From Negaprion brevirostris (taxonomy: Eukaryota): a stretch of DNA of 64,000 bases. The stretch is from NCBI GenBank assembly GCA_030324005.1, contig JARDVH010000099.1, positions 42,271,788 to 42,335,787 of the forward strand. The letters run 5' to 3'. Shown piece after piece: positions 2,986-62,460 of the stretch. The notes under the pieces were generated by a model, which worked only from the letters and a program-made list of their open reading frames with translations, was not told where the DNA came from and searched no databases. The position numbers and the translations under genes were made by a program. Within the stretch, counting starts at the first letter, position 1. Each line of letters begins with the position of its first letter.

Positions 2986-3305
2986 GGGCGGCAAGGTGGC
3001 ATAGTATCCAGCACTGCTGCTTCACAGCACCAAGATCCTGTGGTCAATTCTGGCCATTGGTGACTGTGTGGAGTTTGCATATCCTCCCCGTGTCTGCATG
3101 GGTTTCTTCTGGGTGCTCTGGTTTCCTCCCACAATTCCAAAAGCTTGCAGGTTAGGTGGACTGATCATGCCCCTTAGATTAGCAATGATAAATGTGTGAG
3201 GTTTCAGGGACAGGGTTAGGAAGGGGCCTGGATAAAATACTCTTCAGAGAGCTGATGCAGACTCGATGGGCTGAATGGCCTCCTTTTTGCACTGCACGAA
3301 TTCTA
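2986..3305 (+). mobile_element. HE1-like tRNA-derived V-SINE
   Basis: gggcggca.ggtggc head, V-domain gtgtggagtttgca...gggtttc...ggtttcctcccaca, and CR1-type tail gatgggctgaatggcctcct...gcactg. Confidence 0.85.
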
Positions 3306-4194
3306 AAGAGATGGAAAGGGCAGGCAGCTCCCTACAGGGAGCATTGCATCAATGAGGAAGAAAGGGGGTTTAATCAGAAAAATGAAGGTTTTGTACTTGC
3401 ATTAACACAGCGTTAACTAAATAGACAAAACAGATGGACAAAAACTTTACTTAGCCCCACAGTGACCGTGACAGCAGTGCTGCTTCACTGAAATAAAGTT
3501 CAAGAATTCAATTTTGCACCAACAGGCCCCTTAACAAGCTCCTTAAAGGAATCTGAAGGCTCCGCAACTAGAGGCAAGCAGATGCCCTGTTCCTCCCCCG
3601 CCAGTCTTTCAATATTACAAACTGACCAAGGGCACTGGGATTCCAAGATGATTGTGAGGACTGTAATTATGAAATTGCACCCACAACAGGCTCCCCACCT
3701 TACACTCCTCACAACTTGCTTTCCTAGTTATCTTTATCCTGTCAGCAAACTTGGCAACAATACATGTGGTCTCTCAGCCAACACATTAATATAGATGGTA
3801 AATAGTTGAGGCCCCAGTACTGATCCCTATGATACAACACTAATCAAGCTTTGCAAACCTGAAAATGACTCATTTATCTTGACTTTGTTTTTTGTTGTTA
3901 GCCATATCCCTCTATACTAATCTTACCCATTGGGTAAGATTGGTATAGAAGGCTATGGGCCAAACATAGGCAATTAGGGCTAGCTTAGTGGTTAAACAAA
4001 AAGCAGCATGGACAAGTTAGGCTGAAGGACCCATTTCCATGCTGTAAACCTCTATGACTCTAATTTGCTACCCACGCTAATATTTTGCTCCTAATACAAA
4101 GCTCGTAGCTTGTGTAGTAACCTTTTAAGTGGCACGTTATTGGATGCCGTTTGGAAATCCAAATAGAATAGTTCTACTGGCTTTCCTTTATTCA

Positions 4195-4625
4195 CAGTAA
4201 GAAGCCTCACAACACCAGGTTAAAGTCCAACAGGTTTATTTGTTAGCACAAGCCACAAGCTTTCAGAGCGCTGCTCCTTCATCAGGTGAGGGGAGTTCCG
4301 TTCACAAACAGGGCATATAAAGACACAAAACAATTTACAAAATAATGGTTGGAATGTGAGTCTTTACAGGTAATCGAGTCTTAAAAAGGTACAGACAATG
4401 AGTGGAGAGAGGGTTGAGCACAGGTTAAAGAGATATGTATTGTCTCCAGCCAGGACAGTTAGAGAGATTTTGCAAGCGCAGGCAAGTCGTGCGGGTTACA
4501 GGTAGTGTGACATGCACCCAAGATCCCAGGTTGTTTGGAGCACTGCTCCTTCATTAGGTGAATACCCACTCACCTGATGAAAGGGCAATGCTCCAAAAGC
4601 TCATAACCAAATTTGTTGTGAGCCT
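4195..4625 (-). mobile_element. Penelope-like element 3' end and terminal repeat
   Basis: Reverse complement of the GIY-YIG end (...DLG.MSHY) seen at 10285-10320, followed by the 3' UTR and a terminal repeat with a hammerhead core at 4254-4288; extra inverted repeat at ~4535-4600. Confidence 0.8.
4254..4288 (-). ncRNA. Minimal type I hammerhead ribozyme motif (Penelope-associated)
   Basis: Reverse complement reads CAC-CUGAUGA-A-GGAGC-AGC-GCUCU-GAAA-GC-UU-GUG. Confidence 0.55.
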
Positions 4626-11537: not shown

Positions 11538-11874
11538 ATAGAAATTAGGGAAACCCTACAGTGCAGAAAGCGGCTATTGGGCCCATCGAGGCTACACCGA
11601 CCGCAATCGCACCCAGGCCCTACCCTCACATATTTACCCGCTACTCCCTCTAACCTACGCATCTCAGAACGCTAAGGGGCAATTTAGCATAGCCAACCCA
11701 CCTAATCCACACACCTTTTGACTGTGGGAGGAAAATGGAGCACCCAGAGGAAACCCATGTAGACACGAGGAGAATGTGCAAACTCCACACAGACAGTGAC
11801 CCAAGCTGGGAATCAAACCCAGGTCTCCGGAGCTGTGAAGCAGCAGTGCTGACCACTGTGCTACTGTGCTGCCC
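11538..11874 (-). mobile_element. HE1-like V-SINE
   Basis: Full head, V-domain and CR1-type tail in reverse orientation. Confidence 0.85.
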
Positions 11875-11930
11875 ATAATTATTGTTATTACAAATAGCAC
11901 AATTATTATTGTTATTACAAACAGCACAAT
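11875..11930. repeat. Tandem duplication of ~27 bp
   Basis: attattgttattacaaatagcaca followed by attattgttattacaaacagcaca. Confidence 0.8.
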
Positions 11931-11968
11931 CCTGTGGGTGCTGGAAAACTGTAGGCGAAATGGAAAAT

Positions 11969-12463
11969 CTTCCTTTAGTTTAGAAAGTAAAGTATATTTT
12001 TGAAATAATAGGGAAGTAAAGATGGAGAAAGGTTATGGTCACATTGGATGGCAGAATATTGTATCCTTAAACCAATACTCCAGCTGAAAATGCTGTTAAA
12101 TGTTCAGGTCAGGCAGCGTCTGAAAAGAGTAAAAAAAAATTAACGTTTCAGGTCAGTGATACTTCACCAGAGCTTCAGGTGAAACCTAACCTTGAACAGC
12201 ATTTTCAGCTTTTATTATAAGTTTGAAGAATTGGTGTCAGCCCGGAATTATAACCGATCATTGCGCCTGCCCTTTTCTCCTTGATTTGTCAACTTGTTGG
12301 CCTATTCATATCAATCACTAAAGTTTGTTGGGTCGTGGAGTATTGGTTTAGGATTAGGCCTTTAAGTCCCATACAGTATTCTGCCATCCAGTTAGATCGT
12401 GATCTTTCTCCATCTCTACTCTATTATTTCAAAAATATACTTCATTTTCTAAAATAAAGAAAG
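11969..12463. repeat. Inverted duplication: arms 11969-12082 and 12336-12463
   Basis: For example aagtatatttttgaaataatag / ctattatttcaaaaatatactt and taaaccaatactcca / tggagtattggttta. Confidence 0.85.
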
Positions 12464-12814
12464 AACATTGTCAACATTTCAAAGTAGCCATCACACACAG
12501 TGCAACAGTATTCAGGTTCTCCACATAATGTTGCACCCAAATGCTTCAATACAGTCAAAGAAACATTAGACATTTCAAAATGGTATACAGGTATTTAACT
12601 TGTTTACGTAGATCAAGTTGCACTCTGAGGTGCCATGTGATACATGGAATGAATGTCTGCAGTGAATATTACAGATTGTACAGCTTAAAGGAGTTCTATA
12701 TAATTCCCCTTCCGTCAGATTATGGCTGAAATTCTGAAGCTCTCCCCCACCAATTGCATCTCTATGGTGGTTGTGACCACCCTTTATCTCCCAAATTGCA
12801 TCTCTGTGGTGCTG

Positions 12815-14130
12815 TGCCAAGCTTTATTGCATCCCTCAGCATGTAGTCCTTTGCTTTGGAATGTGCCAGCCTGTAACACTTGGTCTGGGACAACTCCTTG
12901 TACTGGAAGATCAACAAGTTTTGAGCGGACCAAAGAGTGTCTTTCACTGAGTTGATGATCCTCCAACAAGAGCTGATGTTTGTCTCACTGTGTGTCCTGT
13001 GGAGCACAGGGTCTTGCATCATGAAGCTACTCGGGCTGAACCTCAACAAAAACAATCTCATCTCTCTCCAGACACACTTTGCAAAGGCATATTCCACAAG
13101 GAGATCGACAATGATCTCTTCCCTACCACAGTTAACTGAAGGGCAATGTACAGATAGGGTAAGACCCTGGATGTGTAGGAAGGATCTGACCAGGAGGCCC
13201 TTCTCACTACCAGCCATGCTAGGTCTTGGTGCTTGCTTGAAAGTTCTGGTGGTGAGGCATTCTGCCAAATGATCTTGACAGTCTGCTCAGGGAATCATCT
13301 GGAGATGCCAGTGTTGGACTGGAGAGAATTCTCCACTCACCTGACGAAGGAACAGCATTCCAAAAGCTGCTGGCATTTACTATCAAATAAACCTGTTAGA
13401 CTTTAACCTGGTGTTGTGAGACTTCTTACAGGGAAATCATCTGACAGGATTCACCATCTCCTCTTCCCGTAGTACTCCTAGAACATTGTGTGCAGACCAC
13501 TGCCTGATGGACTGTGACCAAAGGTGTTCCTCTGCTTAAATATTTCACAAAGGACTAGTGGTATGGCACAGTCCAGCTGCTTGGAGGGTTCCATGGCAGT
13601 CTGGCCAGACCCATCCTTTGCAATCCTGGGGACAGATATTACTGTGTGTTGAGGTTCTATGTTGTTGCATATTGAGGATCTACGCACACTTTGATCTAGA
13701 CATACAGAAAGGTGGCCATCAGGATTAGGGCAATGTTGGGCACGTTTTCTCGCCCCTTATCTAAAATTTCCCACACTTTGTCCTTTGAATAAGTTTCATT
13801 TTTGACTCCTAGATAAAGTTGAAAATGGCTCATGTAATTGCCGCAGCCCAGATGAGGAAAAGGCCACACTCATGCCACATACAGCAACACTGAAAGTGAC
13901 TCATACCCAATGATCAGGTTCTTACCTGCAGTGGAGAGGGAGCGTTGATCCTACATACCCAGTTTTTGACTCATTATACCTGCTTCTTTCTTCCATTTTC
14001 TAATGCTTGCCTTGGTCCCTCTGGGCCATATCCCCAGCACCTTCAGGCAATCTGACCTGATGGTGAAGGGGACAGGGGGTTGGTCAGCCCATTTCCCAAA
14101 GAACACGGCCTCACTCTTGCCATGATTCTC
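12815..14130 (-). mobile_element. Tx1-clade (L1 group) non-LTR retrotransposon, decayed ORF2 3' portion
   Basis: ORF 12762-13268 contains CPSVNCGREE...WRIINSVKDTLWSAQNLLIFQ...LAHSK..DYMLRD and ORF 13951-14175 contains KSEAVFFGKW...LKVLGIW, both Tx1-like. Confidence 0.75.
13301..13428 (+). mobile_element. Penelope-derived mini-element inserted in the Tx1 relic
   Basis: Short inverted piece (ggagatgccagtgttggactgg) plus a terminal repeat; near-perfect TSD cagggaatcatct / cagggaaatcatct. Confidence 0.75.
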
Positions 14131-17897: not shown

Positions 17898-19134
17898 GAT
17901 GAATTTTAATTGGTCAAGGAAAAAGTGCATGTTTTCCTAATTTTACTTTAAACAGCAAGTATTATCCAACCACATTCAGGCTCCTTACAGAAGGCTTTCA
18001 GGATTGCAAAAGGTATCACAGTCTGGACATGATTTATGTACAAAATGACTGAACATAATAGTGTAAGTAGTGCGAGCAGGCCTAGACTTTGAATTTTATT
18101 TTAGTAGAATTTAGTGTAATTATTTAATTTGGCCATGTTGTTCTAACGTGTGAACAGAAAAGAAGCTGTGCTGATGTTACAAACCCTTTTGAAAGAAGCT
18201 AGCTTAATATAGTACTTTGAAGTAGTCACCAACTAGCAACAGATGATTATATCAGAAGGAAGTGTCTCCACTTACCCTGTAATTGATGGACAAGTAATTA
18301 AGAATAAAACAAGTCAGACTTCTGTATTTTTCCATTAACATTTCTAAGGATTAAAATGGTCACAGAAATCTGGGAAAGCGAAAGCTTGAATTCCAAGTTC
18401 ACTAGTGTACACTACCAAGATGGTTCCCATTTTTCTACTTAAAAAGATCTGATACCCCATCTTGGCCAACGTAACTGGAAATAGTGAATTGGTCAGTAGT
18501 GTTGTGAGGGTTAATTTAATTGGTTCTGGCTAATTGTGCACATCACCTTTTAACTTCAGACTTGCAGGGAACCCATTGATAAAACTAAGGCTGATTCAGA
18601 CAAGGTCCAATGTGTTCCTGATGCAACAGAATTGCATGGAGTTCAGGTTTTCTCTTTCCCAGATTTTTTGCGAGTGTTTTAATCCTTAGAAATGTTAATG
18701 GAACAATTCAGAAATCTAACTTGTTTTATTCTTAATTATTTGTCCATCAATTACACAGTAAGTGGAGGCAGTTTCTTCTGATATAATCATCTGTTGCTAG
18801 TTGGTGACTACTTTAAAGTACTATATTAAGCTACTTTCTTTCAAAAAGATTTGTAACATCAGCATGGCTTCTTTTCTGTCCACACATTAGAACAAAATGG
18901 CCAAATTAAACAAGTACACTAAATCCTATTAAAACAAAATCCAAAGTCTAGGCCTGCTTGCACTATTTACACTATTATGTTTAGTCATTTTGTACCTAAA
19001 TCATGTCCAGACTGTGATATCTTTTGCAATCCTGAAAGCATTTTGTAAGAAGCCTGATTATGGTTGGGTAACACTTTCTGTTTAAAATAAAATTAGGAAA
19101 ACAGGCACTTTTTCCTTGACCAAATAAAATTATC
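17898..19134. repeat. Long inverted duplication: ~498-bp arms (17898-18395, 18637-19134) with a 241-bp spacer
   Basis: Colinear reverse-complement match, roughly 85-90% by eye, e.g. gtagtcaccaactagcaacagatgattatatcagaag / cttctgatataatcatctgttgctagttggtgactac. Confidence 0.92.
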
Positions 19135-21842: not shown

Positions 21843-22006
21843 AATATGCCCTGTTTGTGAATAGAACTCCCACTCACCTGATGAAGGAGCAGTGCTCTGA
21901 AAGCTAGTGTTGTTTGCTACCAAATAAACCTGTTGGACTTTAACCTGGTGTTGTGAGGCTTCCTACTGTGTTTACTCTAGTCCAACGCCGGCATCTCCAC
22001 AGCATG
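21843..22006 (+). mobile_element. Penelope-like terminal repeat
   Basis: Same family as 4195-4320 (reverse complement). Confidence 0.8.
21875..21909 (+). ncRNA. Minimal type I hammerhead ribozyme motif (Penelope-associated)
   Basis: CAC-CUGAUGA-A-GGAGC-AGU-GCUCU-GAAA-GC-UA-GUG: stem I CAC/GUG, stem II GGAGC/GCUCU, palindromic AGCU stem III, followed by AATAAA. Confidence 0.6.
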
Positions 22007-23369: not shown

Positions 23370-23646
23370 GTTTTTTTATTCATTGATGTTGCAAGCAGGC
23401 TTACATTAACAATGCAACAAAGTTACTATGAAAATCCCTTAGTCACCACACTCTGGTATCTGTTTGGGTACACTGTGGGACAATTTAACATGGTCAATGC
23501 ACCTAACCAGCAACGGACTATGGGAGGAAATCGGAGCACCTGGAGGAAACCCATGGGGAGAACGTGCAGACTTCGCACAAACGGTGACCCAAGCTGGGAA
23601 TTGAACCTGGGTCCCTGGTGCTGTGAGGCAGCACTGTGCCACTGTA
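23370..23646 (-). mobile_element. V-SINE with an alternative (non-CR1) 3' tail
   Basis: HE1-like head and V-domain; tail (plus strand) cttacattaacaatgcaacaaagttactatgaaaatccc is shared with 46685-46945. Confidence 0.75.
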
Positions 23647-27750: not shown

Positions 27751-28267
27751 GTAATTGTTCCGAATCTTAATACTTCCGTCAATCACAATAATTCTGGTAA
27801 TTTTAGAATTGGCTATTTTGGAATTGCAGTTGCACTGTTTGTGTTGCTGTCCTCTAATGAGATTATTGCATTTCAGTCTCCAAAATTATGTAATTTCAAT
27901 GTGAGTTAAAGTGGCTCAGTCCTTATGTCAGGAAACAGAACTAGTTTTAAGTAATCCGTATTTGTAGGTAATAGAAACAAGGTGTAGCTTTAAGTTTAAT
28001 GTTGTGTTTCTGTGTAAGAAAGGGCTAAAACTTCAGTTAGCTCAATTTAAACAAATGTGCATGCATGTCTGTGGGTTTTGGTTTGATTTCAAACTGTATC
28101 TGCATTGTAATTAAAGGATTTATGGCATGAAAACAAACTGAGTTTGATTGCTTAGCAGCCAAGGGCCACCCTAGGTTAGAAGAATCCTTTTTTGATTTAG
28201 ATTTTAAGCTGGACCCAGAAACAGCTGGACAGGACCAGGGAGTTGCATGAAGCAGACTGTGCATAAA

Positions 28268-28540
28268 AACATAAGAACATAAGAAGTAGGAGCAGGAGTA
28301 GGCCATCTAGCCCTTCGAGCCTGCCCCGCCATTCAATAAGATCNNNNNNNNNNNNNNNNNNNNNNNNNNNNNNNNNNNNNNNNNNNNNNNNNNNNNNNNN
28401 NNNNNNNNNNNNNNNNNNNNNNNNNNNNNNNNNNNNNNNNNNNCCGGAATCCAGCGAAGTTTGGTAAATAATCACTAAGGCATCTACTATCACCTCTGCC
28501 ATTTCCTTCAGAACCCTGGGGTGCATTCCATCCCATTTTT
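28268..28540 (-). mobile_element. Young CR1/HER1 LINE, mostly collapsed into a gap
   Basis: Tail aacataagaa.taggagcaggagtaggccatctagcccttcgagcctgccccgccattcaataagatc is near-identical to copies at 7760-7829, 36765-36804 and 62382-62445; MHPRVLKEMAEVIVDALVIIYQ is CR1 RT. Confidence 0.8.
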
Positions 28541-32342: not shown

Positions 32343-32698
32343 CAGTAAGAAGTCTCACAACACCACGCCAAAATCCAACACGTNNNNNNNNNNNNNNNNN
32401 NNNNNNNNNNNNNNNNNNNNNNNNNNNNNNNNNNNNNNNNNNNNNNNNNNNNNNNNNNNNNNNNNNNNNNNNNNNNNNNNNNNCAGTAAGAAGTCTCACA
32501 ACCCCAGGCCAAAGTCCAACAGGTTTATTTGGTAGTAAACGCCACTAGCTTTCGGGATTTGCCCCTTTGTCAGGTGAGAAGGGGCAACCCTGAAAGCTAG
32601 TGGTCTTTACTACCAAATAAACCTATTGGACTTTAACCTGGTGTTGTGAGACTTCTCACTGTGTTTACCCCAGTCCCAACGCCGGCATCTCCACATCA
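32343..32698. mobile_element. Penelope-derived inverted-repeat mini-element with a 12-bp TSD
   Basis: Minus-strand repeat 32484-32577 followed by a plus-strand repeat to 32698; TSD tgcctttcaaga at 32331-32342 and 32699-32710. Confidence 0.8.
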
Positions 32699-34254
32699 TG
32701 CCTTTCAAGATCAGTCAGTACACAGGTAGACACAGGAGGTGATTAACATTGTAACTGACCTCCTAAGATGAAGCTTAACATGGCTACTGTTATAGGCAGG
32801 TAAGAACATTTTGCTGTTTAGACAGTGTATGAAACAGATGCTGTCTGAAGGATCACAAGTGCAGGAACCCATTTAGCTCCAGTAGCATAATTGTGAGTTA
32901 GAACTTCTCTGTCCTGAAGAGAAAATTCTAGGCTTTGACCTTTGTGCTCTTCTTTCCACTTGGCCATGCACTTGATCTTGTGAAACTGGTGTTTTCATTG
33001 GTGCCAGGAGATCGAAGCAAGTGTGCAGTAGCAGTCCCACAGGAATACTGGAGCTGCATTAATCATAGCATTTGGCATGTTTCAGTATGTCATCAGAAAT
33101 GTATCTGAGTGTTTTCGAATACAGTGATGACCTTGAAGCACATTTCATGGTTTGAACAAATTTTATTTCTCTACCCTGTCCCCGTTACTACACCCCCCTC
33201 ACTACCCCCCTCATCCTCGCCCACTACTCCCCGCCCCCCCGACTTCAAACATCAGCCTGGAAGTAAAGGACTAAATCTGCCTGCCAACTGATAGTCTATA
33301 GAGCAATAGTTGTGTCTGCTCTGCTGTACATATGCGAGAGACTGTGGCCATGGGAAACCTCTGAAGATCAGATGGCAGAGAAAAAAAAATCATAAATTGA
33401 GGTACTCACCTGAGCTGACAACTCAAGCATCCAAACTACATTGAATTAGTCACAACTGAGTTTGGCTGGTTATGTAGCCAGAATGCCTGATGCTCGCTTA
33501 TCATAGCAAATCTACTATGGAGAGCTTGAGTCTGGAGTGCAGTCTCATAGTGGTCAATGAAAGTGCTACAGTGACACTCTGAAGGCACTTAGGGGTATTA
33601 GTATCAAACTAGAGCCCTAGGAAAAGTTCGCCCAGGGATCATGTCACTGAGTGCAACCCAATAAAGGCCTCCTCAGAAAGCAAGCATATTTCAGAGATGA
33701 AAAGAGGTGAGGAGAGGTAATCCCGAGCCAGGAATTTGTCCAAAACTCCATCTTCTGTGGAATCCTATCTAATTTTTAGAAGAATCTTCCACACGTATTA
33801 TCCACTGGAACACTGCCAAGCACACTAAATGGTAAAAATGGGCAACTTCACTTCAAAGGATGAACAAGAAGACTCCCAATTTAGCAATAATATGTCGCCC
33901 CATCTCCTGTTTTGATTTTAAGTACAGTACTGGTGCCAACATTTAGCACTCCTATGTTCAATGCAGAGCAAAGTTTACTTAGTAAGCCCATGAATGTTGT
34001 TGCTGACTTAGTGTACAGTTTCTGAAGGTCGATATTCCTTAGCATATGAGGCTGCCTAAACAGATTTCACTCAGCAGCTTCACAACAGATATTCTTCCCA
34101 GAAATGAAACATCTTGTGTTATCTCATCACCATGTTTGTTTAGCTGCAGATTCTTACCAAACATTGCACACTGTGCATCAACAGAATTTCCTCTTGGAGG
34201 AATATGCCACTGTTTATATTGTAGAGCCATTGAGTGATTGTTTAAAATTAAAGG

Positions 34255-34579
34255 TAGAATCATAGAATCCCTACAGTGCAGGAGGGCACTCGGCCCATCG
34301 AGGCTGCACCGAAAACAATCTTACTCGCACCTTATTTTCGTAACCCACATATTTACCTTGCTAGTCCCCCTGACGTTAAGGGGCAATTTAGCATGGCTAA
34401 TCAACCTAAGTTGCACATCTTTGGAGTGTGGGAGGAAACCGGAGCACCCAGAGGAAATCCACGCAGACATGGGGAGAATGTGCAAACACCACACAGACTA
34501 GTGACCTGAGGTTGAAATTGAACCTGAGCCCCTGGTGCTGTGAGATAGCAGTGCTAACCACAATGCCACTGTGCCGCCC
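34255..34579 (-). mobile_element. HE1-like V-SINE
   Basis: Head, V-domain and CR1-type tail in reverse orientation. Confidence 0.85.
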
Positions 34580-36849
34580 ATTAAAATAGTTTTGGTCTAA
34601 ATGATCCCTCCTTTATCCATATCACTTTCCAGCTTCCTGTATCTTCCCACACCTTACCATTCTACCTAATTTAGGTGCGATCTCAAAAGATTTTACTGAT
34701 AATTTTGATGACAGGCTCCAACGAGAGTGGAAAAGAAATATTGTTAGCTTTAGTAAAATTGTTTTTCTTTCAATCCTCCACACAGTGGTGCTGGTGAGAC
34801 ATTTTCTATATATTCTATAAATTTATGCATTGTTAAAATGTTATTTTATCACTCTAATTTTAAATTGCTGCTGATGTTTTTGCATAACAATGGAGAATGA
34901 CATTGAAATAAAGAATATCTGGAATGAACTGGAAGCAGATATAAAATGTAAAACAATAAATGGCATTCTGATCCTCTGCCAGCTTATTTGAAACTCATAA
35001 AATGCAGCGCATGGCATGCCGTGCTGCCATGTGTCCCCAGTCTGTCTTCCATTTTACCAGGGTTTGTGGAGGTGTTGGGCCTTCCTTGGGCCTTTTGAGA
35101 TTCTTGAATGGCTAATTAAAGGCCACAAGTGCCTCATCCCACCATGCAGCTATTTTACTGCAGCAGGGCTTGTCCAGGTCAAGTGGGGAGCTCCAGTAGC
35201 ATGGGCTGGAGAGGTGGGGAGGGGGAGGAATCTTCTGTGCCACCGTAAGCCATACTTCCTTTTATCCCTCCCAGCCTACCCCCAGACTTTTAATCCCAGC
35301 CTCTGTAAGCTCCTTACTGCCCTGCTGCAGCCTACTAGCCAAGCCCCACCAATATCAGGACTTGCCTATAGTCTAGCCTTCATTACCCTTCTCCTTTGGT
35401 GATTACCTGCAGTCCCAGCAGTGGCCATTGCTTGAATCTGGTGCTGCTGGGATTGCAGAGCTGCCAGTTATCAAATGGGCAGGCATTTCTCAGGTGGGAC
35501 TTCCTTTCCAGATGATAGCCGTGGTCTTGCCCTTAGCCAGTTAATGCCCCACCAAATGTGGGACATTTGGCAAGGCAGGAAATGCCACCATCCAAAAAAT
35601 CCTGCCAAATGGAGTAACATTCATAAAGTACTATTGAATCATTATTTGATTTTATTCAGAAGAAATAGACTTTTTGGTGACAACATGTTGTACAATTGTT
35701 TTCTAATAGATTGTTGTCATTTGCAGATATTCTCATTTATAGCTGTACATTAGAAGTTATTATACCCCTTTTAAAAAAAAGATTGCAATTTATAAACCAA
35801 TGTTCAAGTCCAGAAATTTTACTGACAGCAAATAAAATGGCAGGCATGAAATTATTTTAAAAAAGGCATTCATTTTGTTTCCACCTTGCCTGCAAAGCAT
35901 TTACTCATTTGGGGATGATTTCTCAGAAATTGGGCACTCACTTGTATCTTGCTGCAGTTACCATTGTTCAAGTCTGATCCTTGGTGGTCAATGTTGGTCA
36001 TGGTAAGGGAGGGGAGAAGAGGATTTGGACCTTAGCCAAATCCTGAGTTCTCATAACATTGACAGATATGCACTGTCAGCATCTGTTTAGCAATCGGGAC
36101 TGCAACTTGTTTGAAAGCAAAGAACCCAAATAAGAAAGCTGACAGTCAGCATGTGACTGCTGGCAAGAAACTGCAGCCTGAGATAAATTAAGAACAGGAG
36201 TTTTTTTCCTAACAAAATACAGAAACTCTTTGAGCTGCTGAAATGTGTCAGACTGACCTTTTGACGTCACTTTTAGTTTCCATAGCAATTGAGATTTTTT
36301 GAAAGGTTGAACTAATATACATATTGTATATTATTTTTGAAAAAATTGAAGAAGATTTTATATCGTTCTGTCTCCCTGAAAGTAATGTTTGCTGTATGAA
36401 AATGCTGTTTTCATACTTAATAACACTGCACACAAATGAGAACAAAAATGGCATAAAATTGAACTTGATTTTTTTTTTTACATCTGCTTTCGCTGTCAAA
36501 TGTACCACGTGATGATTTAGCTGTCGAGCAAAATAGATATGTCCAGTATAAAAGCTGGAACCAACAGCAGCAACTTATTTCCGTGGTGCCTTTACCAAAA
36601 TTAAATATCCCAAAGCACTTTACAAGAATGTGAGAGAGCAAAATTTGACACAAACCACGCAAGGAGTTATTAGGCCAGATGTTGATGGGTTTTTGATAAG
36701 CGAGGGGATTAAGGGTTATGGGGAGACGGCGGGAATGTGGAACTGAGCCACTTCAGATCAGCCATGATCTTATTGAATGGCGGGGCAGGCTCGAGGGGCT
36801 AGATNNNNNNNNNNNNNNNNNNNNNNNNNNNNNNNNNNNNNNNNNNNNC

Positions 36850-45075: not shown

Positions 45076-45851
45076 GTAAGTAGTCACAGACTTGAATTAT
45101 TAAAAAGACATGTATTTTGTTCAATTTGTGATTGGAAAATATATTTTTGAAATTGATATTACATTGCTGGGTACATGGGGGATTGAGAAACAGAATTAAA
45201 TATCATAAAGTAGAATTTGCATTGCAATTCTAGTATTTTTAGTAATTTTAAAAGAAGAATATGTTATTGTTAATAAGAAAATTTAGAATTTTCAGGGAAG
45301 CAAGCCTAAAACATTTTCTACTCCCACACACAAATGTATCTTCTAAATCTGTGCCTTCAGTACTTGATTTTCATTTTCTGACTCTCACATTCTTTTCCTT
45401 CTGGTACAAGTAAAGGATGTATGCCTACTGCTTAAGTTACAAAGACTTTGTAACTATGTGCTTTCACATGTCAGAATTGTTCTTCAATTGTCAATGTTTT
45501 GGGGAGGTGCCAATTTTTTTTATTTTCTAGGTTGACGCCTGTGCTTTTGTACTTAGCATTTCATTGAGAATCACTGTTGCAGTGAATACACTTGGCATGG
45601 ATAAATGGTCCTCTTAAGTAGCCTCAATCAAAACATGGTCTTAGCCTCCGCAAAGATCTCACCCATTCTACTTAAAATTCTTTTATGTCTTCTGTTTCAA
45701 AATTTCTTCAAGTAAATTTGTACATGTTACATTAGTTCCTTATCATTCAAAGTCTTGCATTATTTATAATTCAATACGAGACCGCAGAGCATTTTTTTCT
45801 TGTCCTGTGTGAATTCACATTAATTTCATAACATGTATGGATTTCTGGTAG

Positions 45852-46049
45852 GGTGCTGGAATTCTTAATACCTATCACTGATCGAATATGTGATACTGGG
45901 AAGAATAAGGTGAGCCCAGTCTATTCAGCGGTGTATGGAGGACAGCAAACGTGTTTAAAAATGTTACTACGGGCAGGTTACAGTCCCAACGCCCAGGAGT
46001 GCCCATTGTATGACTGCCTGTCGCCATTGTGCATGGCTTTTTCTCAGAG
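45852..46049 (+). CDS. ASB3: ASB3 coding exon 6
   Basis: (K)[65 protein letters not shown]; ggtag acceptor, AG|gtaag donor; 198 nt, phase 2. Confidence 0.95.
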
Positions 46050-46684
46050 GTAAGCTATTCAGCTTTGAGATTTGATTACTTTCTGCAGAATCGTAAAAGG
46101 CACATTGTGTGTGGTTAAGGATGCATAGGTTTTGTAATACTGTGTAATATATATGAGCATGAAATAGGGCTGTATTTTATGCACTGCAGTGAACAAGGGG
46201 CACCAGCCATTAATTGCACTTGCCCACAGATTTTCAGTGGGGTAATGCAACTTTTCCAATGCAGTGTCTATTGCAAGAGGTCTGGCAGCTGTGAACAGAG
46301 CAACCATAAATTTCCTTAGCCAGCAGATCGCAGAACAGCTGCTGGACAGTACCAAGAGTCTTAGCCCAAAGTTCAAGTTAAAATATTTAGTTCCATGCCA
46401 GTTGATGTACGTCAGCAAATTAGAGCGGGGTGGGGGGGAAGATTGAGAGAGGTAAAAGACTGAGCATAAAAGTTTTTGTTTACCTTCAAATTTTATTAAC
46501 TCTCCAGTATTATAATAGCAGTAACTTGTGTTTATATGACACCCTGTAAATGCAGGAGCTTCGCAGGAACATGACAAAAACAAATTTGACACAAGCCACA
46601 TAAGATATTAGGGCATGCATGGGCAAACAGGAATGCTTTAAAGTAAGAAAAGGAGCTAGAGGAGTTGGGAGAATGTCAGCTTAG

Positions 46685-46945
46685 TTTTTAAGTATTTATT
46701 AGTGTCTGAAGCAGTCTTACATTAACATTGCAATGAAGTTACTGCAAAAATCCCCTTGTCGCTGCACTCCGTGCCCGTTCAGGTACACTGAGGGAAAATT
46801 TACCATGGTTGATACACATAACCAGCACTTCTTTCAGATTGTGGGGGGAAACCGGACCACTCAGAGGAAACCCATGCAGACACCAGGAGAATCAAACTTG
46901 GGTCCTTGGTGCTGTGAGGCACAGCTAACCACTGTGTCATTGTAT
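46685..46945 (-). mobile_element. V-SINE with an alternative 3' tail
   Basis: Same structure as 23370-23646. Confidence 0.75.
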
Positions 46946-49900: not shown

Positions 49901-51201
49901 CAATAACAATAAAATACACCCATTAACAGTACACCTGTTAATCACAATTGCATTACCAGAAGGCATACATATAATCACCCAGATCCTGTCAATCATATTC
50001 ATCAATTGACCAAATTGCTTAGCAAAAGCAGAGTCACTATTTCTAATGATGTTTATGCTTTACAGGGTGGGCTACATGTTTCATTGACAAGATTGTACTG
50101 CCTTATCAAATTCCATCTTAAGCTGCAATTGTCCAGTGAGGTATCTAATTCCTTATTCAAACTATATTAGACTCTGCCCTGATGTTTTACTTCTGTTTTA
50201 AACTTCCTTCAATGTTTTTCCATCTCTTTTTGGATCATGCAGATGTTTTAAGATCCTTAACAGCACACAATAGCAATTTCCTTTTTAGCTCTCAGATTTC
50301 AGAACCACAAGATAATTCAAACAATTAGAGTTACGATTCTTGTAAAGATAAATAACCCAAAAGAACCAAACTTCCCAAATGTTCCCCCTAATGGAAAAAA
50401 TGGATGGGCAAGATTTCATTTACTTAACAATCAAACCAAAATCAACATAAATTAAACACAAATTAACAGACAAATTGTATTTAATAGAAACCATGAATTA
50501 AATTTCAAATAGCTAATACAACAAAGATTTGCTGGCAGTCCCCTTAGGAAATATGGCACTGTGTCCAGCCCCAAAGCCCTTCACACTCTGTCACTCTCCA
50601 GTAAGGTTCAGCTCCTCTTTGCCATGCAGGATTTGATCGTAAGTTGCTTCTGCCAACAGTTTTAATCCATCTGAGTTCCATAGGTATGGTTATCACCCAA
50701 AGGGCTCAATTTTGCAGAACCTTCTTGAATTGATTCAGAGCAATCGTGATTCCCCAGAGTCATTCAAAAAAAAACTCCGCTACAAGGTGTGGGCACCTCT
50801 GGTAAAAACTGAAACAGTGAGGATAACTTTATTTCACCAACCTGGTTTGAAAAGCAGTTTTCAGTTTTTCATTTGTCTTTCGTTTGCCTCCCACCCACCA
50901 CTCTTCGCACCCATTGTAACTCCCTCCTTCCCCATAAGTTCAAAAATTACAGGCTTTGAAGCACACTGCAGGGTCCCTCAAGTTATTAACTTCTTCTGAG
51001 TTGTTGCTTTGTGAATGAAAGATCATTTATCTTCTAAGTAAACACAAAATGGAGTTTGTATCTTTGCATTTCAAAAGAAAACATACCCTGTCATCATCAA
51101 TCACTGTCAGTTTCTGCAGCTTTCAAAATGTTTAAGTTAGTGAAACAGACATTTTGTGTCCGTGTTATTGAAACATGAAGGTTCAGCAAAGTAACAGCTT
51201 G

Positions 51202-51645
51202 TTGGCCTTTTGGCTAAGATCAAATGTAGTAACAACATGCTGTACTTGGTTGAAGTCATTGGATTACACTTCAGCTTAATTTGAAGCAACTTTTTAAAGC
51301 GGCATCTCAGCCTTTTGGCTAAGATGCAAATGAGATCAAGCCTTGGAGGAGGTGCAATGCCTACACCAATCAGCTTGGATCACGTAGATCAAGCCCAAGA
51401 CAGGAGGTGAGAGCCCTGTCTTGTCAGCTTGGATCGGGAATGNNNNNNNNNNNNNNNNNNNNNNNNNNNNNNNNNNNNNNNNNNNNNNNNNNNNNNNNNN
51501 NNNNNNNNNNNNNNNNNNNNNNNNNNNNNNNNNNNNNNNNNNAAGACAGGAGGTGAGAGCCCTGTCTTGTCAGCTTGGATCGGGAATGTCTCAACTTGTT
51601 GGGACTCTGAATTGGACTTGATTGGATTGAATTGGAATTTAAAAA
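51202..51645 (+). mobile_element. U2 snRNA-headed SINE-like retroposon with an A-tail and 9-bp TSD (contains a 100-N gap)
   Basis: 51197-51231 matches U2 nt 4-38 at 32/35 and 51302-51325 matches U2 nt 4-27 at 22/24; TSD aacagcttg at 51193-51201 and 51646-51654; second copy at 60080-60333. Confidence 0.75.
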
Positions 51646-53569
51646 AACAGCTTGGAGGCATACCTGTTTATTGGTTCTAACCTTATTTTACTACCCTGGT
51701 GTCTTGTTGGATGTTCCATTGCCTCAAAAGTATTACTTTCTATCACAGATCAGTGATTCTGTCCACTTTCCATGACAAACAGCTTGCAACTTTTAACATG
51801 TTAATTTATTTCAAAGTTTTATGGCCTTTCTAATGCATGCTGCTAAGATTTGGTTAATTTCTGCATGTCACCTGCCTATTTCAAACAGAATTCTGTACTC
51901 CGCTCAAACTATCAATTTCCACTGCATTCCCCATGTTGAATAGCTTTCCTAAAACTGAACTGCAAATTTCACCCAGAAATAGATTAGTCAAAAATATCGA
52001 GCCTCTTAAGCCACTGTGGCTGTCTGAGTCCTTCATTTTGAAGGCTGTTTCAATCTTTCTGTCTCCTGCTCCTACAGCGACTGAGATGGTACCTTTGTTG
52101 TCTCGATTGTGAACAGTTTCCCCTTTAAGGTAAAGAAGGTATGATTTTCCTGTGTGTGCTGTTATTTTGAATGCAATTCAGCTTTATTGAGGAAACATGC
52201 ACGGAAAAGTGCATGACGCCACAGCAACTTGCACTCCTTGAGTGATCTGTGACGTACCAGCACCAAGTAGAAGAGAGAACTAGTATTTGGGTATAAATTA
52301 AATTGTGTTTGTGTAACTGAAAAAGTAATGTATGTCTCCTGCGTTTATAATAGTTTAGTAATGCATTGTGCAGTACCATTTATATTGTTTCATTTGTCAG
52401 AGAATAGTGGAATATTTTACATAAGAACAAGTTATTCTGATTTGAGAAACTTAATTAAAATGCTGATTTCATTACTTCGCAATACATTTTTATTACATTT
52501 GTTAAACCATTTTGTATATTCTCATTTTCTTAAGTAGCTTCATTTTACATTCTAATTATATGCAGCTGTGCTTTTTTAAAAACAAACTAGGCAAACAACG
52601 ATCTTTCTGTTTTGATGTCAAATTGACTTTTTGGTTTGCTATCCAAGAATAGGAGGAGAAAAGTGTGTGTGTTTGTGTTCTAAAATGCCTCTTAAAATAA
52701 TAGTGCAAGGTTTGAAATTAAGTTTATAAAATTGAAAAATAAGCAAGAGTTATCAAAGGTTAAACCTTTAGATTAAAAAGGACATTTTTGCAAAATGAAA
52801 TGAGATGGGAAAATGAACTATGCTGGAGAGTAGCATTTGCGTTAGCATCTTCGATGGTCTGCTATTTTCCTGATTTGGTTCTACTTTCTGTTATTGAAGT
52901 TTAGACCATCAAAAACCCATACATGTCTTAACTCTGCCTACTCAAATCTAGAGAGCTGAATACCCTGTTCTTGATATTGAAATCTTATACATCAGAGTTG
53001 GAAATTGCTTCAACCACCATCGAAGAGGAGGTGACGATAGAAAAATTCTTTAATAACTGCATGCTAATTAATGGAATGAAGAAGCCAAATAATTATATAG
53101 GATTCTACACAATCTACAGCATAGAAGCAGACTATTCAGCCCAGCTGATCCCTGCCAGTTTTTATGCTCCATATTAGCCTACTCTCACTCTACTTGTCAA
53201 ATCCCATCAGCATAATTGTTATTGCTCACCCCCCACCCCATGCCCAATGTATCTATCTAATGTCCCCTTAAATGCTTGAAAAACGTTTTGTGACCATTCT
53301 TAATTTTATTTTTGCTCTACATTGTCCCTGGGCTTTTGCATTCTTCAAGAGATTCATGTTGCAGGCAGTGGAATGGATACTGTTTAGTCAAGATGGTTCA
53401 GACGTCAATTTTGTATGTTTGTAATTTAAAATATCCTTTTGAATTTGCTCTCCTTGTTTCATTTATTTAATCTATTATATAGAGGATCTTAAGCTTTAAC
53501 AAAGTCAATTACGTAGGTATGAAGGAAGAGCTGGCTGTGGTTGATTAGGAAAATAGATTTAAAGATATT

Positions 53570-54347: not shown

Positions 54348-54852
54348 TGTTATATAGTGGAGCTTGATCCCCCTCTGAGAACTAACACCAAAACCTCCAA
54401 AGAAGAGTACCTCTTAATTGCCCCTTAATGTGTCCTGGGATGCATAGGTTAGAGGGATTAGCGGGTAAAATATGTAGAGATATGGGCTGGGGCCTGGGTG
54501 GGATTGTGGTTGGTGCAGACTGGATGGGCCGAAGGGCCTCTTTCTGCACTGTAGGGTTCTATGATCTATGATCTACCTCGCCTCAAGCTGTAAAACCTGT
54601 GTGTGAAGTGATGTGACCTGCTCTTCAGCAACTCCTAGTGGTTAAATACAAAATAAATCCCTGATACTCTAAAATCAACATGTAACAGTTTATTTATCTA
54701 ACTGTCTGAACAACTTTACTAAATTATTAACAAACCGAATAAAGCAAGATTCTAATGATATACTGTTCCAATAATTATAATTAACCCTCATTAACAAAAA
54801 AACATTTGTTACTTTCTGAATTGCAACCAGGTTTTGTATTTTCTGGAATATT
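54348..54852. mobile_element. LTR-like repeat truncated by a gap, containing a 5'-truncated HE1 SINE (54414-54573, TSD tacctc)
   Basis: Starts TGTTATA and is colinear with 56870-57231; tacctc at 54408-54413 and 54574-54579. Confidence 0.65.
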
Positions 54853-56869: not shown

Positions 56870-57673
56870 TGTTATAAAGCGGAGGTTGATTCTCCCACCC
56901 TCTCCCCCGCTTTGAGAACAAACGCCAAAACTCCCAAAGAGGAGTACCTCTCCTTATAATCTGTAAAAAGTGTGTGTGAAGTGGTGTAAACTGCTCTTCA
57001 GCAACTCTTAGTTGTTAAATACAAAATAAATCCCTAACACTCTCTCTAAAATCAACTCATAACAATTTATTTGTGTAATAGTGAACAACTTTACTAAACT
57101 ATTATCAAACCGAATAAAACAAGACTCTAATGGTATGCTGTTCCAATAAATACAATTCCCACTCATTAACAAAAAAACGGAGTTTAGTTACTCTCTAAAT
57201 TGCAACTAAGTTTTGTATCTTCTGGAATATTCTGGGCCTTCTCTGTTGATTCTTCTTTCTTCTTTGGTATCTTTGCTATCTAGGTGGGGCTTTGATCTAA
57301 AAGCTGTGAGCTGTGACAGGTGGCAGTTGCTCTCTCCTTTTGTCCCACTGCCTCCTTCTTTTCTACCTGTGAAGACATATCAATATTTCCCACAATTGGA
57401 TTGGTCCCAGGTTGTCAAAACCACCAGATTTAAATTTAATAGGTTCTTGGTATCTAAGTGCCTAATTCAAATTGATTGACTGAATTAAAAAGTTTCAAAA
57501 GCTTGAAAGCCTGTTGTCTTGTTTAAAAACTGCTGCTTGTATTGAACTTTTGATACAAATGTCTCAGATGGAGCTCTATATATACTTGCATTTTTTTAAA
57601 CTCTCTTAAGCGCAGAAAAAGCTCCACCTTTTAAAGGGACCATGCAATGCTTTCTCCCTAGCATTTTACAACA
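56870..57673. mobile_element. LTR-like repeat (~800 bp)
   Basis: Termini TGTTA...CAACA; homologous to 54348-54852. Confidence 0.65.
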
Positions 57674-57709: not shown

Positions 57710-58915
57710 GTAATGAGACAAAGTCGACATTGTTCTTACAAAAGGGAAATTCTGTTCAAAAATTGAGTTTTTTGAGCATGTAACTAGTAGGGTAGGTGAA
57801 CTAGAAAATGTAGTATAATTGGATAGCCAAAAGATATTTGTTAAGGTGCCTCGCAAAAGTTCACATAAGGTAAGGGCCATGGAGTTAGGACAATTTATAG
57901 CATGGTTAGAGCATTGTTTAATGGACAGGAAGTGAAAGTTAGGGATAAATGAGATTTTCAAGCTAACAGGCTATAATTACTGTAGTGCAACAAGGAGCAG
58001 TGCTGTGGACTCAACGACTTGCAAACTATGTTAATGCCTTAGACGAAGCGACAAAATAATATGTCTAAGTTTGTGAATGATGCAAAGTCACATGGGACTG
58101 TAAGCGTTGAGGAAGATGCAGAGATTCCAAAGAAAGATAGGCAAGTTAAGTGCATGGGCAACAAGATGCAGATGGAGGGGAAGTTGTGAGGTTAGAAGAA
58201 GGGAAAGGCAATTTTTTTTAATATGGTGTGAAACTTGTAAATGTTGATGCTCAGCGAGTCTTGGGTATACTTGCACAAGAAACTTAAAGGTACATTTAGG
58301 AAAGCAAATTGTATGTTGGCTTTTATTGCAAGAGCATTGAAGTATAGGAATAAAGAAGTCTCACTAACAGTTGTATGGGGCATTTATGAGATCATACTGG
58401 AATACTGTGTGCAATTTTGATCTCAGTAGTTGAGGAAGTATATAGTTGCATTGGAGGCAATATAGCAAAGGTTCATTTGATTGGTCCCTGGGATGTGACG
58501 GTTGTTCAATGATGAGACTGAGTAAGTTTGACCTATATTCTCTGGACTTTAGAGAATGAGAGGTGCTCTTATTGAAACACTTAAGCTTCTGAAGGGATTT
58601 TACTTGGTCGATATTGAGATGTTGTTTCACCTGGCTGGGATTTCTGGAACACGGACATAGTTTCAGAATAAAGGACTAATTGTTTCTGACAATGTGCAGA
58701 AATATCTTCTCTGAGGTTTGTGAACCTTGGAATTCTCTACTTAAAATTATGGATGAACCATCATTTAATGTATTTCAGATTGAGATAGACAGATTTTTGG
58801 GGTCTCAGGGAATCCAGGGATATGGGATTTAAGCCTAAGATCAGCCATTATCACATTGAATGGCTGAGCAGACTTGATGGGCTGTATGACCTTCTTGTGC
58901 TCCTATTTCTTATAT
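57710..58915 (+). mobile_element. CR1 LINE, 3' portion
   Basis: RQS.H..TKGK-like start, SKFVNDAK, LEYCVQF and a 3' tail ending ctcctatttcttat. Confidence 0.85.
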
Positions 58916-59462
58916 TTCAGAAGTAAGCCATGCTCAAGTCAAAATGGATGAAATCTGTTATCTCCTTTATCAGTGTAACGCTTTTCTTTATGGTATCTTG
59001 TTTCCAAGTTTTGTAATAGCAGCATTTAATATTTGTTATCTGGGAAATTTATCTTTCAATTAACTCATTTTTTCCTTTTAGAATTGAATTGGTTAGCGAT
59101 CTTTTGTATTATATTCTAAAGGATTATATACTTTTTGATGTATTGATTAAGGCATTGAGCAGTTAATGCCAGAGTGATTTCTTTTCATTGTTACAGAACC
59201 AAAATTTAAAAGAAAATTTGCTATTTTATTCTTGTGTCCCAGATAGATGTCTTATACTATATCATAGTAGGTTTGCAATCAGACCAATTGTACATGCATA
59301 TGTAAAACAATTGGATGCACTTGCATTTATTCATTATTAATCTACCTTGGGAAATGGCTTAACTGATAAATTATGAAGATTGTTGTATGTCCTGAAAAAA
59401 AAATCTGCTGTTTATTTGATTCAGGAAGGCAGACTAATTCTTTTCATTTATTTCATTTCTAG

Positions 59463-59714
59463 ATTTTTTGAAATTGTTTATATCCTCCTCAAAGCTGGAG
59501 CTGTTGTAACAGGTCTTCACTATTGTTATTGCCTGCAATATCAGTGCTTCCATTTGCTACAGTTTCTTCTGGCACAGGGTTACACATTGCCATCAGGCTG
59601 TCATTTGGCTGGCATTGCAAAGTATGGATTGTTAGCAGAACATCAGTATAAGCAGTGGTTACCTCATCTATTACTGGCTGGACTGAATCCTGTTGATCTG
59701 CTTAGTGAAGCATG
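59463..59714 (+). CDS. ASB3: ASB3 coding exon 7; the gene continues past this exon
   Basis: (R)FFEIVYILLKAGA...QYKQWLPHLLLAGLNPVDLLSEA(W), like human FFGIVNILLKYGA...[24 protein letters not shown]; ttctag acceptor, TG|gtaag donor; 252 nt, phase 2. Confidence 0.93.
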
Positions 59715-60079
59715 GTAAGTAACAAGTTCAGAGATGCACCCACTTGTTATTTTAAAATAACAAAATAACTGCAAATGACTTCTTTATAGTTGAAATAGTA
59801 AGTCAGAAAATAGACGTATTGGTTGAAATATTATCGCTCCACCCACTTCATTTACATTTAAATAATGAGCTCGAGCGTGCAATGTTGTTTCATCATTTTG
59901 CAAGTTTCATTTAATAATGGGTATCACATCCAAGACTGATTGTCGAGAACTGGCTAGTATTTCACAGGGAGTGATTAAAATATTACGAATGCTGAAGTGT
60001 AGGGTTGATTAATAAATGCCATCTTAAGTGTGGAGTAAACCATCTAATGTATTAACATTGTACCAATCATAACTTTGGT

Positions 60080-60333
60080 GTTGTTTTTGGGTTTTTTGGC
60101 TAAAATCAAGTACAGTTTTTGATCCTACAGCAGGTCTAAGCCAATGAGGTCACCTGAAGCAATCTTTTAAAGCTGTCTCGGCCTTTTGGCTAAGACGAAT
60201 CTCAGATGAAGCCCAGGAGAGGGTGTAATGCCTCATCCTGTCAGCTTGGATCTTGTTTGAGTGAGCCCAAAATAGGAGTGACCTGCCTTGTCAGCTTGGG
60301 TCTGTTTTGAATTGCATTTTGATTGGGAATAAA
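60080..60333 (+). mobile_element. Second, more diverged U2-headed SINE-like copy
   Basis: Degenerate U2 5' end at 60080-60116; perfect U2 nt 7-26 (tctcggccttttggctaaga) at 60176-60195; shares tgaagcaa..ttttaaagc and two tcagcttgg units with the 51202 copy. Confidence 0.7.
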
Positions 60334-61007: not shown

Positions 61008-61096
61008 AATAAGAAGTCTCACCAGGTTAAAGTCCAACAGGTTTATTTGATAGTAATCCCACAAGCTTTCAGAAACGCTGTTCCTTCGTCAGGCGT
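61008..61096 (-). mobile_element. Penelope-like terminal repeat
   Basis: ccaggttaaagtccaacaggtttatttg...aagctttcagaaacgctgttccttcgtcagg. Confidence 0.75.
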
Positions 61097-62204
61097 GTGG
61101 AAGGTTCCCAGGGATTGGTGTATGTTCCTCAGTTGACTTTGGTGCTGGTATTTTGCTGATTTTTAGATTCTTTGGATCATTATGGATTTTGGTAGCTGAT
61201 GTCACGGCTGAAATGGAGGACAGAATGTTCAACCCAATTTGGTTTCAGTTGGATTGGCCAGCCTTGGATTTTTGGGACAGAGATTTGGTATTTTGGATTC
61301 TAACCACTATCTCACTCTCTTGCCTTTTCTCACCTGCTGCTTTTATTCCAGACATTTCCATGTTTAAAAATAACAGTTGTGGTTATATTTTTCATGAGCA
61401 TTAAGTAGCCTTTGTCACTCTAACATTAAAGCACGACAGAGAAAATCACTATCAGAGAGATCTGTGTAAGTCTTAAAGGAAATCTCATCATTTTCTTGCA
61501 CAGAGGAACTCTAACTAGGAGCATCTTAGAGGATAGGTAGCAGGGCTCTCTTTTGAAGTCTCTGACGTTTAAAGAATCTGGTTAATTGTAAAACAATCTA
61601 ATATAGCACTCATTTTAAGAATCTTGTAGTGAAGGCAAATCGAGCTCAAATTTATTCAAGACCCAGGGACTTGATTTATTTTGTGTACTTTTGAAACACA
61701 CTAACCTGGTAAATTTTTATTTGTTATCTTAATGCAATCATTAACTCGTCAGTGGAAATTGGGAATGACTATATTTAAATGGCAAAATCAGAAGTTTATT
61801 GTAAAGTAAAAATGGCATGTTGAAGAAAATAAATCCACTAAGCTGTTTATTTAATCTTTTATTAAGAAGGGAAAAGTAATGTGAATTTTAAAAGATATTC
61901 CAGGGATAAAGAAATGTGGTGAAGATATAAATCCCAGGAAAGCTATAATCCAGAATTCCAAATTCACTATCTTTCTTCCCTGCCCCATGTATGGAGGAAT
62001 TCCAAATTTTGCTGAACAACCTTGGAAGGTTAACTTGTTATTTTGGGACTTGTATAAGGAGAATTTTAACATCATTTCTGCTTCAATTTCTACCTTGATG
62101 GTTCCATTAAGGGCCTATTTGGTCGAAAAACAAACAGCTTGAAATGGGAGGTCGGGGAGGATAAATTTAGGTAAGGCGTATAAACAAGGGGGGGGAACGT
62201 TATT

Positions 62205-62460
62205 TTTATTTACAAAGTAGGTGCATTATAATATAAAAAAGGATAGCAAGAGTTTTTATAAATATATAAAAAGGAAGAGGCNNNNNNNNNNNNNNNNNNN
62301 NNNNNNNNNNNNNNNNNNNNNNNNNNNNNNNNNNNNNNNNNNNNNNNNNNNNNNNNNNNNNNNNNNNNNNNNNNNNNNNNNTGAATGGCAGGGCAGGCTC
62401 GAGGGGCTAGATGGCCTACTCCTGCTCCTATTTCTTATGTTCTTATTATGTTCTTATGAC
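62205..62460 (+). mobile_element. CR1/HER1 LINE collapsed into a gap
   Basis: NIKKDSKSFYKYIKRKR before the gap; young CR1 tail with tatgttct repeats after it. Confidence 0.75.

Follow-up and report, generated by a model that had tools for sequence, protein, structure and literature searches.

A probable SINEU-like retroposon with U2-derived heads in two introns of the Negaprion brevirostris ASB3 gene

Why does an intron of a shark gene carry the 5′ end of U2 small nuclear RNA (snRNA) twice, and is the sequence around it a mobile repeat? The question is raised by a 64,000-nucleotide stretch of the Negaprion brevirostris genome (assembly GCA_030324005.1, contig JARDVH010000099.1, positions 42,271,788 to 42,335,787 of the forward strand), which was analysed as a whole and is called the window. 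A preliminary description had proposed at 51193-51654 a retroposon resembling a short interspersed element (SINE), with a doubled U2 head, and the observation as a whole was confirmed at that place. The element begins with the U2 5′ end in sense orientation, followed by an antisense arm, a linker, U2 stem-loop I, two hairpins, a repeat tail and poly(A). We consider it probable that it represents a family of non-autonomous retroposons, about 300 nt long, which operate in the manner of the SINEU elements of crocodilians and are moved by a long interspersed element (LINE). SINEU-like is a fair working label, since the copies are dispersed and not in tandem, both carry U2 heads, the ends of copy 1 are retroposon-like and the element is non-coding.

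Two dispersed copies with U2-derived heads

Copy 1 (51202-51645, plus strand) measures about 300 bp once a 46-bp overlap at an assembly gap is collapsed. With the Rfam U2 consensus used for numbering (position 51194 = nt 1) and head matches counted by eye, its first head agrees with U2 at 32 of 35 positions over nt 4-38, the same count as in the preliminary description. Five of these bases (51197-51201, nt 4-8), however, had been counted twice, as U2 and as part of the flanking target-site duplication (TSD), so that the clean head comprises nt 9-38, past which the U2 match ceases. The second head, described as nt 4-27 at 22 of 24 positions about 70 nt past the first, was found as such at 51302-51325. 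In Rfam the U2 match of copy 1 reached E=6.4e-7 and 41.5 bits, against a gathering score of 46. Gathering-level Rfam matches were absent from the whole window, and a search downstream of head 1 (E up to 10) revealed neither U2 nor any other family. An intact or functional U2 snRNA gene was rejected on the grounds that the score lies below 46 bits and that nothing of U2 follows nt 38.

Copy 1 is flanked by an exact 9-bp direct repeat and has a run of seven A, two of which lie within the repeat. Such a repeat is above chance, occurring in 1 of 4,449 tests of A-runs against upstream windows, a range that includes the element's own pair. As a caveat, the window has four occurrences of the same 9-mer on its plus strand, one of them 132 bp downstream. 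The 5′ copy of the repeat also agrees with Rfam U2 nt 1-8 at six of eight bases, and on the simplest reading it would be a real TSD, the end of which shares microhomology with the U2 5′ end.

The 46-bp overlap is exact (51397-51442 = 51543-51588) and flanks a gap of 100 N. Overlaps of this kind were seen at two of the 17 N-gaps in the window, and the duplication is probably an assembly overlap. After collapse, copy 1 is 316 bp long with both direct repeats and 298 bp without them, in agreement with the approximately 300 bp proposed earlier, although a third hairpin unit may be hidden in the gap, so that the exact length is uncertain. The other 100-N gap with overlapping ends (37/41, at 32343-32524) reflects the same assembly habit.

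The related copy reported 9 kb away proved to be an element of about 254 bp with the same layout (copy 2, 60080-60333, plus strand). The copies are 75.5% identical over a 155-column core (E=5.6e-23), with 117 of 147 aligned bases identical, 16 transitions and 14 transversions. Head 2 of copy 2 fits the Rfam consensus without a mismatch. Head 1 is diverged, agreeing at 23 of 30 positions with U2 nt 9-38 (by eye) and at 22 of 30 with head 1 of copy 1, and it aligns loosely to about nt 44. Hence the stop right after the branch-point-recognition sequence, emphasised in the preliminary description, holds for copy 1 but not clearly for copy 2. The spacer and the tail are homologous between copies (416 and 66 of 20,000 random segments, respectively, score as well), while the flanks are unrelated and the insertion sites share nothing (290 of 300 random segments score as well upstream and 28 of 300 downstream). 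Therefore, the copies share both ends and do not derive from segmental duplication, which is ruled out by the unrelated flanks together with an ASB3 exon lying between the copies. Copy 2 ends in a polyadenylation-signal-like hexamer (60328-60333, plus strand). In sense orientation to ASB3, this hexamer follows a splice donor of the gene at a distance of about 600 bp.

Neither copy codes for a protein: the longest open stretch inside them is 62 codons, and the two open reading frames (ORFs) of at least 58 amino acids (AA) that overlap the copies had no Pfam match. Among the 277 open stretches of at least 58 AA in the window, the Pfam scan gave five matches, all to ankyrin repeats. Runs of at least four T occur three times in copy 1 and seven times in copy 2. 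A scan with RNA polymerase III (pol III) box motifs found no A and B box pair common to the copies, only copy 1 having a B-box-like match, and a transfer RNA (tRNA) scan of the window returned no call. A pattern scan of bacterial and archaeal genomes gave one match (0.58 expected), with no similarity beyond the pattern. The antisense frame 51194-51379 had one protein match, with a best stretch of 26 residues at 31% identity, which we treated as chance.

The window spans most of the ASB3 gene on the plus strand. Seven of its exons map within 17080-59733 (plus strand) and correspond to residues 1-417 in Rhincodon ASB3; the remainder of the gene lies outside the window. One exon is 90% identical to the Rhincodon and Scyliorhinus proteins, 82% to that of skate and 77% to that of Callorhinchus. 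Copy 1 is located in the intron between exons 45850-46050 and 59440-59733 and copy 2 in the next one, both sense to the gene.

Antisense U2 arm and hairpin body

In both copies the stretch after head 1 resembles the reverse-complemented U2 head. The preliminary description had missed both this antisense arm and the two-unit structure of the body. As the pattern was spotted after looking at folds, all tests of it are post hoc. Positions 51238-51251 pair with nt 25-38 of the copy 1 head at 13 of 14 positions; pairing as good is found at 3 of 121,684 positions in the window, with 0.0014 expected in the 57 positions of the spacer. The reverse complement of the copy 1 head aligns to the copy 2 spacer, only 23 of 20,000 random segments scoring as well, and the converse test (66/20,000) gave the same register. 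The arm begins 5-6 nt past nt 38 in both copies. A possible second antisense piece, seen in copy 1, is marginal (1,004/20,000; 13 of 16 bases agree with the Rfam consensus by eye). An Rfam search of the arm did not detect it as U2.

The arm of copy 1 pairs better with the head of copy 2 (11 Watson-Crick and two wobble pairs) than with its own (eight and five). Since the copy 1 head is 28/30 U2-like and yet its arm fits the variant head of copy 2 better, this head looks refreshed. We infer that in the source element head and arm formed a hairpin over the branch-point-recognition sequence; copy 1 would later have received a fresh U2 head. Judged by base complementarity, the copy 1 arm can pair with the branch-point-recognition sequence.

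The body consists of two related hairpin units per copy. Common to all four units are a stem at the base, a small asymmetric loop and an upper stem of varying sequence, and 55 of 64 cells pair, a number reached by 8 of 500 shuffles. Folding of single units gave z values of -1.4, -3.2, -1.9 and +0.5. The units of copy 1 start with eight bases equal to U2 consensus nt 24-31, so that the hairpins may also have been seeded by U2. They are candidates for stem-loops recognised by a LINE, like those demonstrated in zebrafish (PMC4176376, available part).

Three further ideas on these structures were discarded. The remnant Sm site in the linker was placed there by the Rfam global alignment, and its motif is absent in copy 2. 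A ribozyme was excluded by the lack of an Rfam match. A compensatory pair that would extend head 2 is explained equally well by CpG decay on either strand.

Table 1. Positions of the element copies, their parts and the tabulated repeats in the window (z, fold score relative to shuffles; counts per 20,000 refer to random segments)
Feature	Position	Strand	Remark
TSD 5′ copy; last bases resemble U2 nt 4-7 (probable junction microhomology)	51193..51201	+	
Copy 1 U2 head 1 (nt 9-38), ends with branch-point-recognition sequence	51202..51231	+	28/30 to Rfam consensus
Antisense arm of copy 1, from about U2 nt 38 to nt 17; able to fold back onto head 1	51238..51259	-	13/14 pairs; 66/20,000
Possible second antisense piece, from about U2 nt 37 to nt 22, seen in copy 1 alone	51262..51277	-	marginal
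Conserved linker before head 2, start of core shared with copy 2	51282..51301	+	
Copy 1 U2 head 2 (nt 4-27), extended U2 stem-loop I	51302..51327	+	22/24; fold z=-4.8
Copy 1 hairpin unit A	51334..51381	+	
Copy 1 hairpin unit B; part of it recurs beyond the gap at 51543-51581	51387..51435	+	z=-3.2
100-N assembly gap, ends overlapping	51443..51542	.	
Small hairpin, 4-nt loop, absent from copy 2	51588..51605	+	z=-3.1
Copy 1 tail: short degenerate repeats and 7-A run	51608..51647	+	shared with copy 2, 66/20,000
TSD 3′ copy	51646..51654	+	exact repeat
ASB3 exon separating the copies (tblastn span), host context	59440..59733	+	
Diverged U2 head 1 of copy 2, covering about nt 1-38 and perhaps reaching nt 44	60080..60117	+	E=0.14; 23/30
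Antisense arm of copy 2, from about U2 nt 38 to nt 11	60123..60152	-	23/20,000
Copy 2 U2 head 2 (nt 7-26)	60176..60195	+	20/20, E=0.087
Copy 2 hairpin units A and B	60205..60302	+	unit B alone no better than shuffles (z=+0.5)
Copy 2 tail, polyadenylation-signal-like hexamer at end; no A-run, no clear TSD	60308..60333	+	
Palindromic MITE-like repeat	2408-2814, 4191-4318, 13325-13429, 21844-22006, 32484-32703, 61010-61108		
Young repeat end	7753-7829, 28262-28343, 36764-36804, 58847-58917, 62382-62458		

Mobilisation and competing explanations

For a SINEU-like element of this kind, transcription by RNA polymerase II would start outside the element, either from a source copy placed behind a U2 gene promoter or by read-through; transcription by pol III is unlikely because of the internal T-runs. 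The ORF2 protein of a LINE, probably of the L1/Tx1 clade, would then reverse transcribe the RNA at a nicked target, primed on the A tail, which would leave a short TSD and a 5′ end joined by microhomology. Jumps of the reverse transcriptase onto U2 snRNA would repeatedly add or replace U2 5′ pieces and in this way produce the doubled head.

An L1/Tx1 partner had already been suggested in the preliminary description, and it is still the probable one, although no LINE tail shared with the element was found in the window to bear this out. The window contains a C-terminal LINE ORF2 fragment (12765-13286, minus strand) that is 55% identical to a Heptranchias protein carrying PF13966, and which we take to belong to the L1/Tx1 clade. 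Matches of 12 bp near this fragment (12.3-12.6 kb) are antisense to the LINE and at chance level. The 3′ end of the fragment recurs as an inverted copy some 300 bp away, at 83% identity (11968-12064 / 12371-12464).

Several results weigh against the proposed family. A third copy was sought in the window with an nhmmer profile and a four-unit covariance model, and nothing was obtained below E=0.2; translation of the antisense frame and comparison with protein sets gave no independent copy either, and the search of the window for LINEs sharing the tail yielded nothing beyond 13-mers. No TSD could be recognised at copy 2 (best 7/8 or 8/10), nor does it have an A-run, so that the TSD and A-run reported earlier hold for copy 1 only. 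The TSD of copy 1 has odd echoes: 51190-51201 (flank and TSD) recurs at 10 of 12 bases at 51228-51239, the end of head 1 (there are seven such cases in 61,613 positions), and the 9-mer after the A-run is identical to the 3′ motif conserved in the hairpin units. A-run-adjacent 9-mers were found inside the element in 2 of 292 cases, both from the two copies themselves, and the echoes may be chance or a trace of target copying at the 5′ junction. With regard to the arm, the antisense alignments within copies are not significant (1,004 and 5,113/20,000), the fold-back of head 1 and arm is unremarkable in energy (z=-1.0), and in copy 2 the head fails to pair with the arm. The covariation score of the hairpin units, matched by 6 of 500 shuffles, belongs to a structure that was itself derived by folding these four sequences, and double-changed pairs do not exceed those of shuffles (55/500). 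As a whole, copy 1 folds at z=-2.1 and copy 2 no better than shuffles (z=+0.19).

A bolder proposal, which we hold to be unlikely, is that the element is an undescribed, abundant shark retroposon that evolved independently of SINEU. The initial ~45 nt of U2, used in both orientations, would have supplied most of its sequence, and its arm would hide the branch-point sequence in cis and grip U2 in trans. If this were true, the arm would hold U2 by the reverse transcriptase as the next template, explaining the recurrent gain of U2 heads; the question of how snRNA-headed SINEs come to be transcribed would be answered by a source copy under a U2 promoter.

Instead of a SINE-like family, the copies could be a non-autonomous LINE, born by insertion at U2 nt 38/39 and transcribed from the U2 promoter there: either the end of a U2-headed LINE of the Tx1/Keno type or what an internal deletion left of one. 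Keno (Tx1 clade) and Utopia are autonomous LINEs residing in U2 genes, where U2 continues from nt 39 onwards, and the earlier statement that they insert at about this position corresponds to the nt 38/39 site given in the available part of PMC4640811, exactly where head 1 of copy 1 ends. Some crocodilian Tx1 families bear U2 heads (PMC4494074, available part), and both shark copies start near U2 nt 1-9. Yet U2 nt 39 onwards flanks neither copy, the alignment of copy 2 reaches about nt 44, and the antisense arm, located 5-6 nt past nt 38, accounts for the boundary without Keno. Furthermore, unlike Keno and Utopia, the shark element is non-coding (no endonuclease or reverse transcriptase), lies in non-U2 sites with 3′ flanks that are not U2, and is dissimilar to the LINE fragment in the window. 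We regard such a derivative, which is the idea of a U2 gene and Keno/Utopia chimera in the preliminary description, as unlikely; with both copies lying outside U2 and the fold-back giving a different reason for the boundary, it stays an unproven minority reading.

That there is no true family at all, only a rare chimeric U2 retrocopy that was recopied nearby by a local hop or tiny duplication, or else a U2 fragment that copy 1 acquired separately, is rather improbable in our judgement, even though just two copies are seen, on the same strand and 9 kb apart. Head 1 of copy 1 lies between near-direct repeats (10/12), as for an internally primed U2 fragment, and tailless U2 retropseudogenes and U2-LINE chimeras resemble the element in their 3′-truncated U2 5′ fragment and junction microhomology (PMC5322556, available part). 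These are one-off events, however, whereas the head, arm, body and tail of the shark element are common to dispersed copies: the flanks are unrelated, an exon intervenes, copy 2 likewise has head 1 and arm in register, and the divergence of about 20-25%, the indels and the paired stem changes would fit separate source lineages better. As to the claim that the element is repeated rather than one-off, two dispersed copies with a shared structure were found in the window. Many internal hairpins and the 11/14 inverted complementarity of the copy 2 ends would suit a DNA-level fold-back or miniature inverted-repeat transposable element (MITE) with incidental U2 pieces, but copy 1 has an A-run and a TSD and no terminal inverted repeat (best 8/12), and the hairpins use G-U pairs and are features of one strand, making this very improbable. 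Barely credible is an intronic guide RNA for U2 (small Cajal body-specific or small nucleolar RNA), or its retrogene. Both copies are indeed intronic, sense in ASB3, two-hairpin and partly antisense to U2, and the arm of copy 2 stops just before a D-box-like tetramer at 60154; this tetramer is missing at that place in copy 1, the spacer and body have no Rfam match at E up to 10, and neither copy contains a C box (at most one mismatch), hinge H box or terminal ACA.

Relation to known elements and other repeats in the window

According to the available part of PMC4494074, SINEU elements are reported from crocodilians only; they have short U2 heads, recurrent 5′ additions, poly(A), TSDs of about 10 bp and a Tx1 partner, pol III is excluded by oligo-T, and their transcription is left as an open question. 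The same source describes subfamilies that contain two U2 pieces, as well as 5′ additions that arose independently and show short homology at the junction. Of these, SINEU-1, and especially 1E and 1F with their two U2 pieces, is closest to the shark element, both being shorter than 500 bp and non-coding, with a doubled U2 5′ head, a body of unknown origin, internal oligo-T and no internal promoter, and copy 1 also having poly(A) and a TSD of about the 10 bp of SINEU-1; this likeness is structural and drawn from published descriptions. The features of the SINEU group found here are a U2-derived head, a non-coding length below 500 bp and internal oligo-T without a shared pol III box pair; seven A and a 9-bp TSD are present in copy 1, neither being clear in copy 2, and in 61,812 non-N bases there are two copies with shared structure and unrelated flanks. 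The shark element differs from SINEU-1 in its host and in that no U1 piece or Mariner-N4 target was seen in it (PMC4494074, available part). In the same part of that source there is no mention for SINEU of a U2 5′ region in sense-antisense-sense order, with its antisense arm, or of a two-hairpin body. SINEU-3, an internally deleted U2 gene, has a U2 5′ head of about 32-38 nt as does the shark element, but retains 83 bp of mid-U2, whereas the shark element has no Rfam match to U2 past head 1 (E up to 10), and copy 2 has no canonical Sm site.

For cartilaginous fish, the available parts of PMC3747384 and PMC5499810 describe HE1, SacSINE1 and CmiSINE, which like this element are short non-autonomous retroposons and unlike it have tRNA-derived heads and CR1/L2 partners. 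Only tRNA-headed SINEs are named for sharks, and snRNA-headed ones are placed in crocodilians, in the available parts of PMC5381603, PMC3747384 and PMC5499810. Our search of the literature for snRNA-headed SINEs of sharks found none, Repbase Reports, Dfam and most subscription journals being outside its scope, and the available parts of PMC5786205, PMC7245038 and PMC11481361 contained nothing further on sharks. An existing entry in a repeat library, at least an automatic one, is quite possible.

The element is probably a repeat family, although its density can be estimated only weakly: counting the copy that did not trigger the analysis, 61,812 non-N bases give 16 per Mb with a 95% interval of 0.4-90. 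A second lineage in sharks would mean either that promoter-less snRNA heads have founded SINE-like families repeatedly or that the group has a much greater age or spread by transfer. Recurrent U2 capture may have a specific and testable cause in the antisense arm. Slow genome evolution is stated for the elephant shark (PMC5381603, available part); with such slow change in sharks, source copies and 5′ junctions may stay readable, which makes the promoter question testable. The weight of these considerations is limited by the two copies and by the possible automatic library entry.

The window also holds other repeats. The MITE-like palindromic repeat of Table 1 is frequent, matching itself in both orientations in at least six places. 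The young repeat end, up to 97% identical, borders several assembly gaps and presumably represents the 3′ tail of a CR1-type LINE. A SINE-sized repeat with 72-77% identity (11550-11876, 34265-34581, 23377-23645, 46693-46898 and 2986-3169) resembles what we take to be the tRNA-headed HE1/V-SINE of sharks. Two halves of an inverted pair (17902-18395 / 18637-19131; 495 bp, 89% identity) lie about 240 bp apart and could be a fold-back or non-autonomous DNA transposon. Finally, a direct pair of 289 bp (54574-54852 / 56945-57231) with 83% identity is separated by 2.4 kb.

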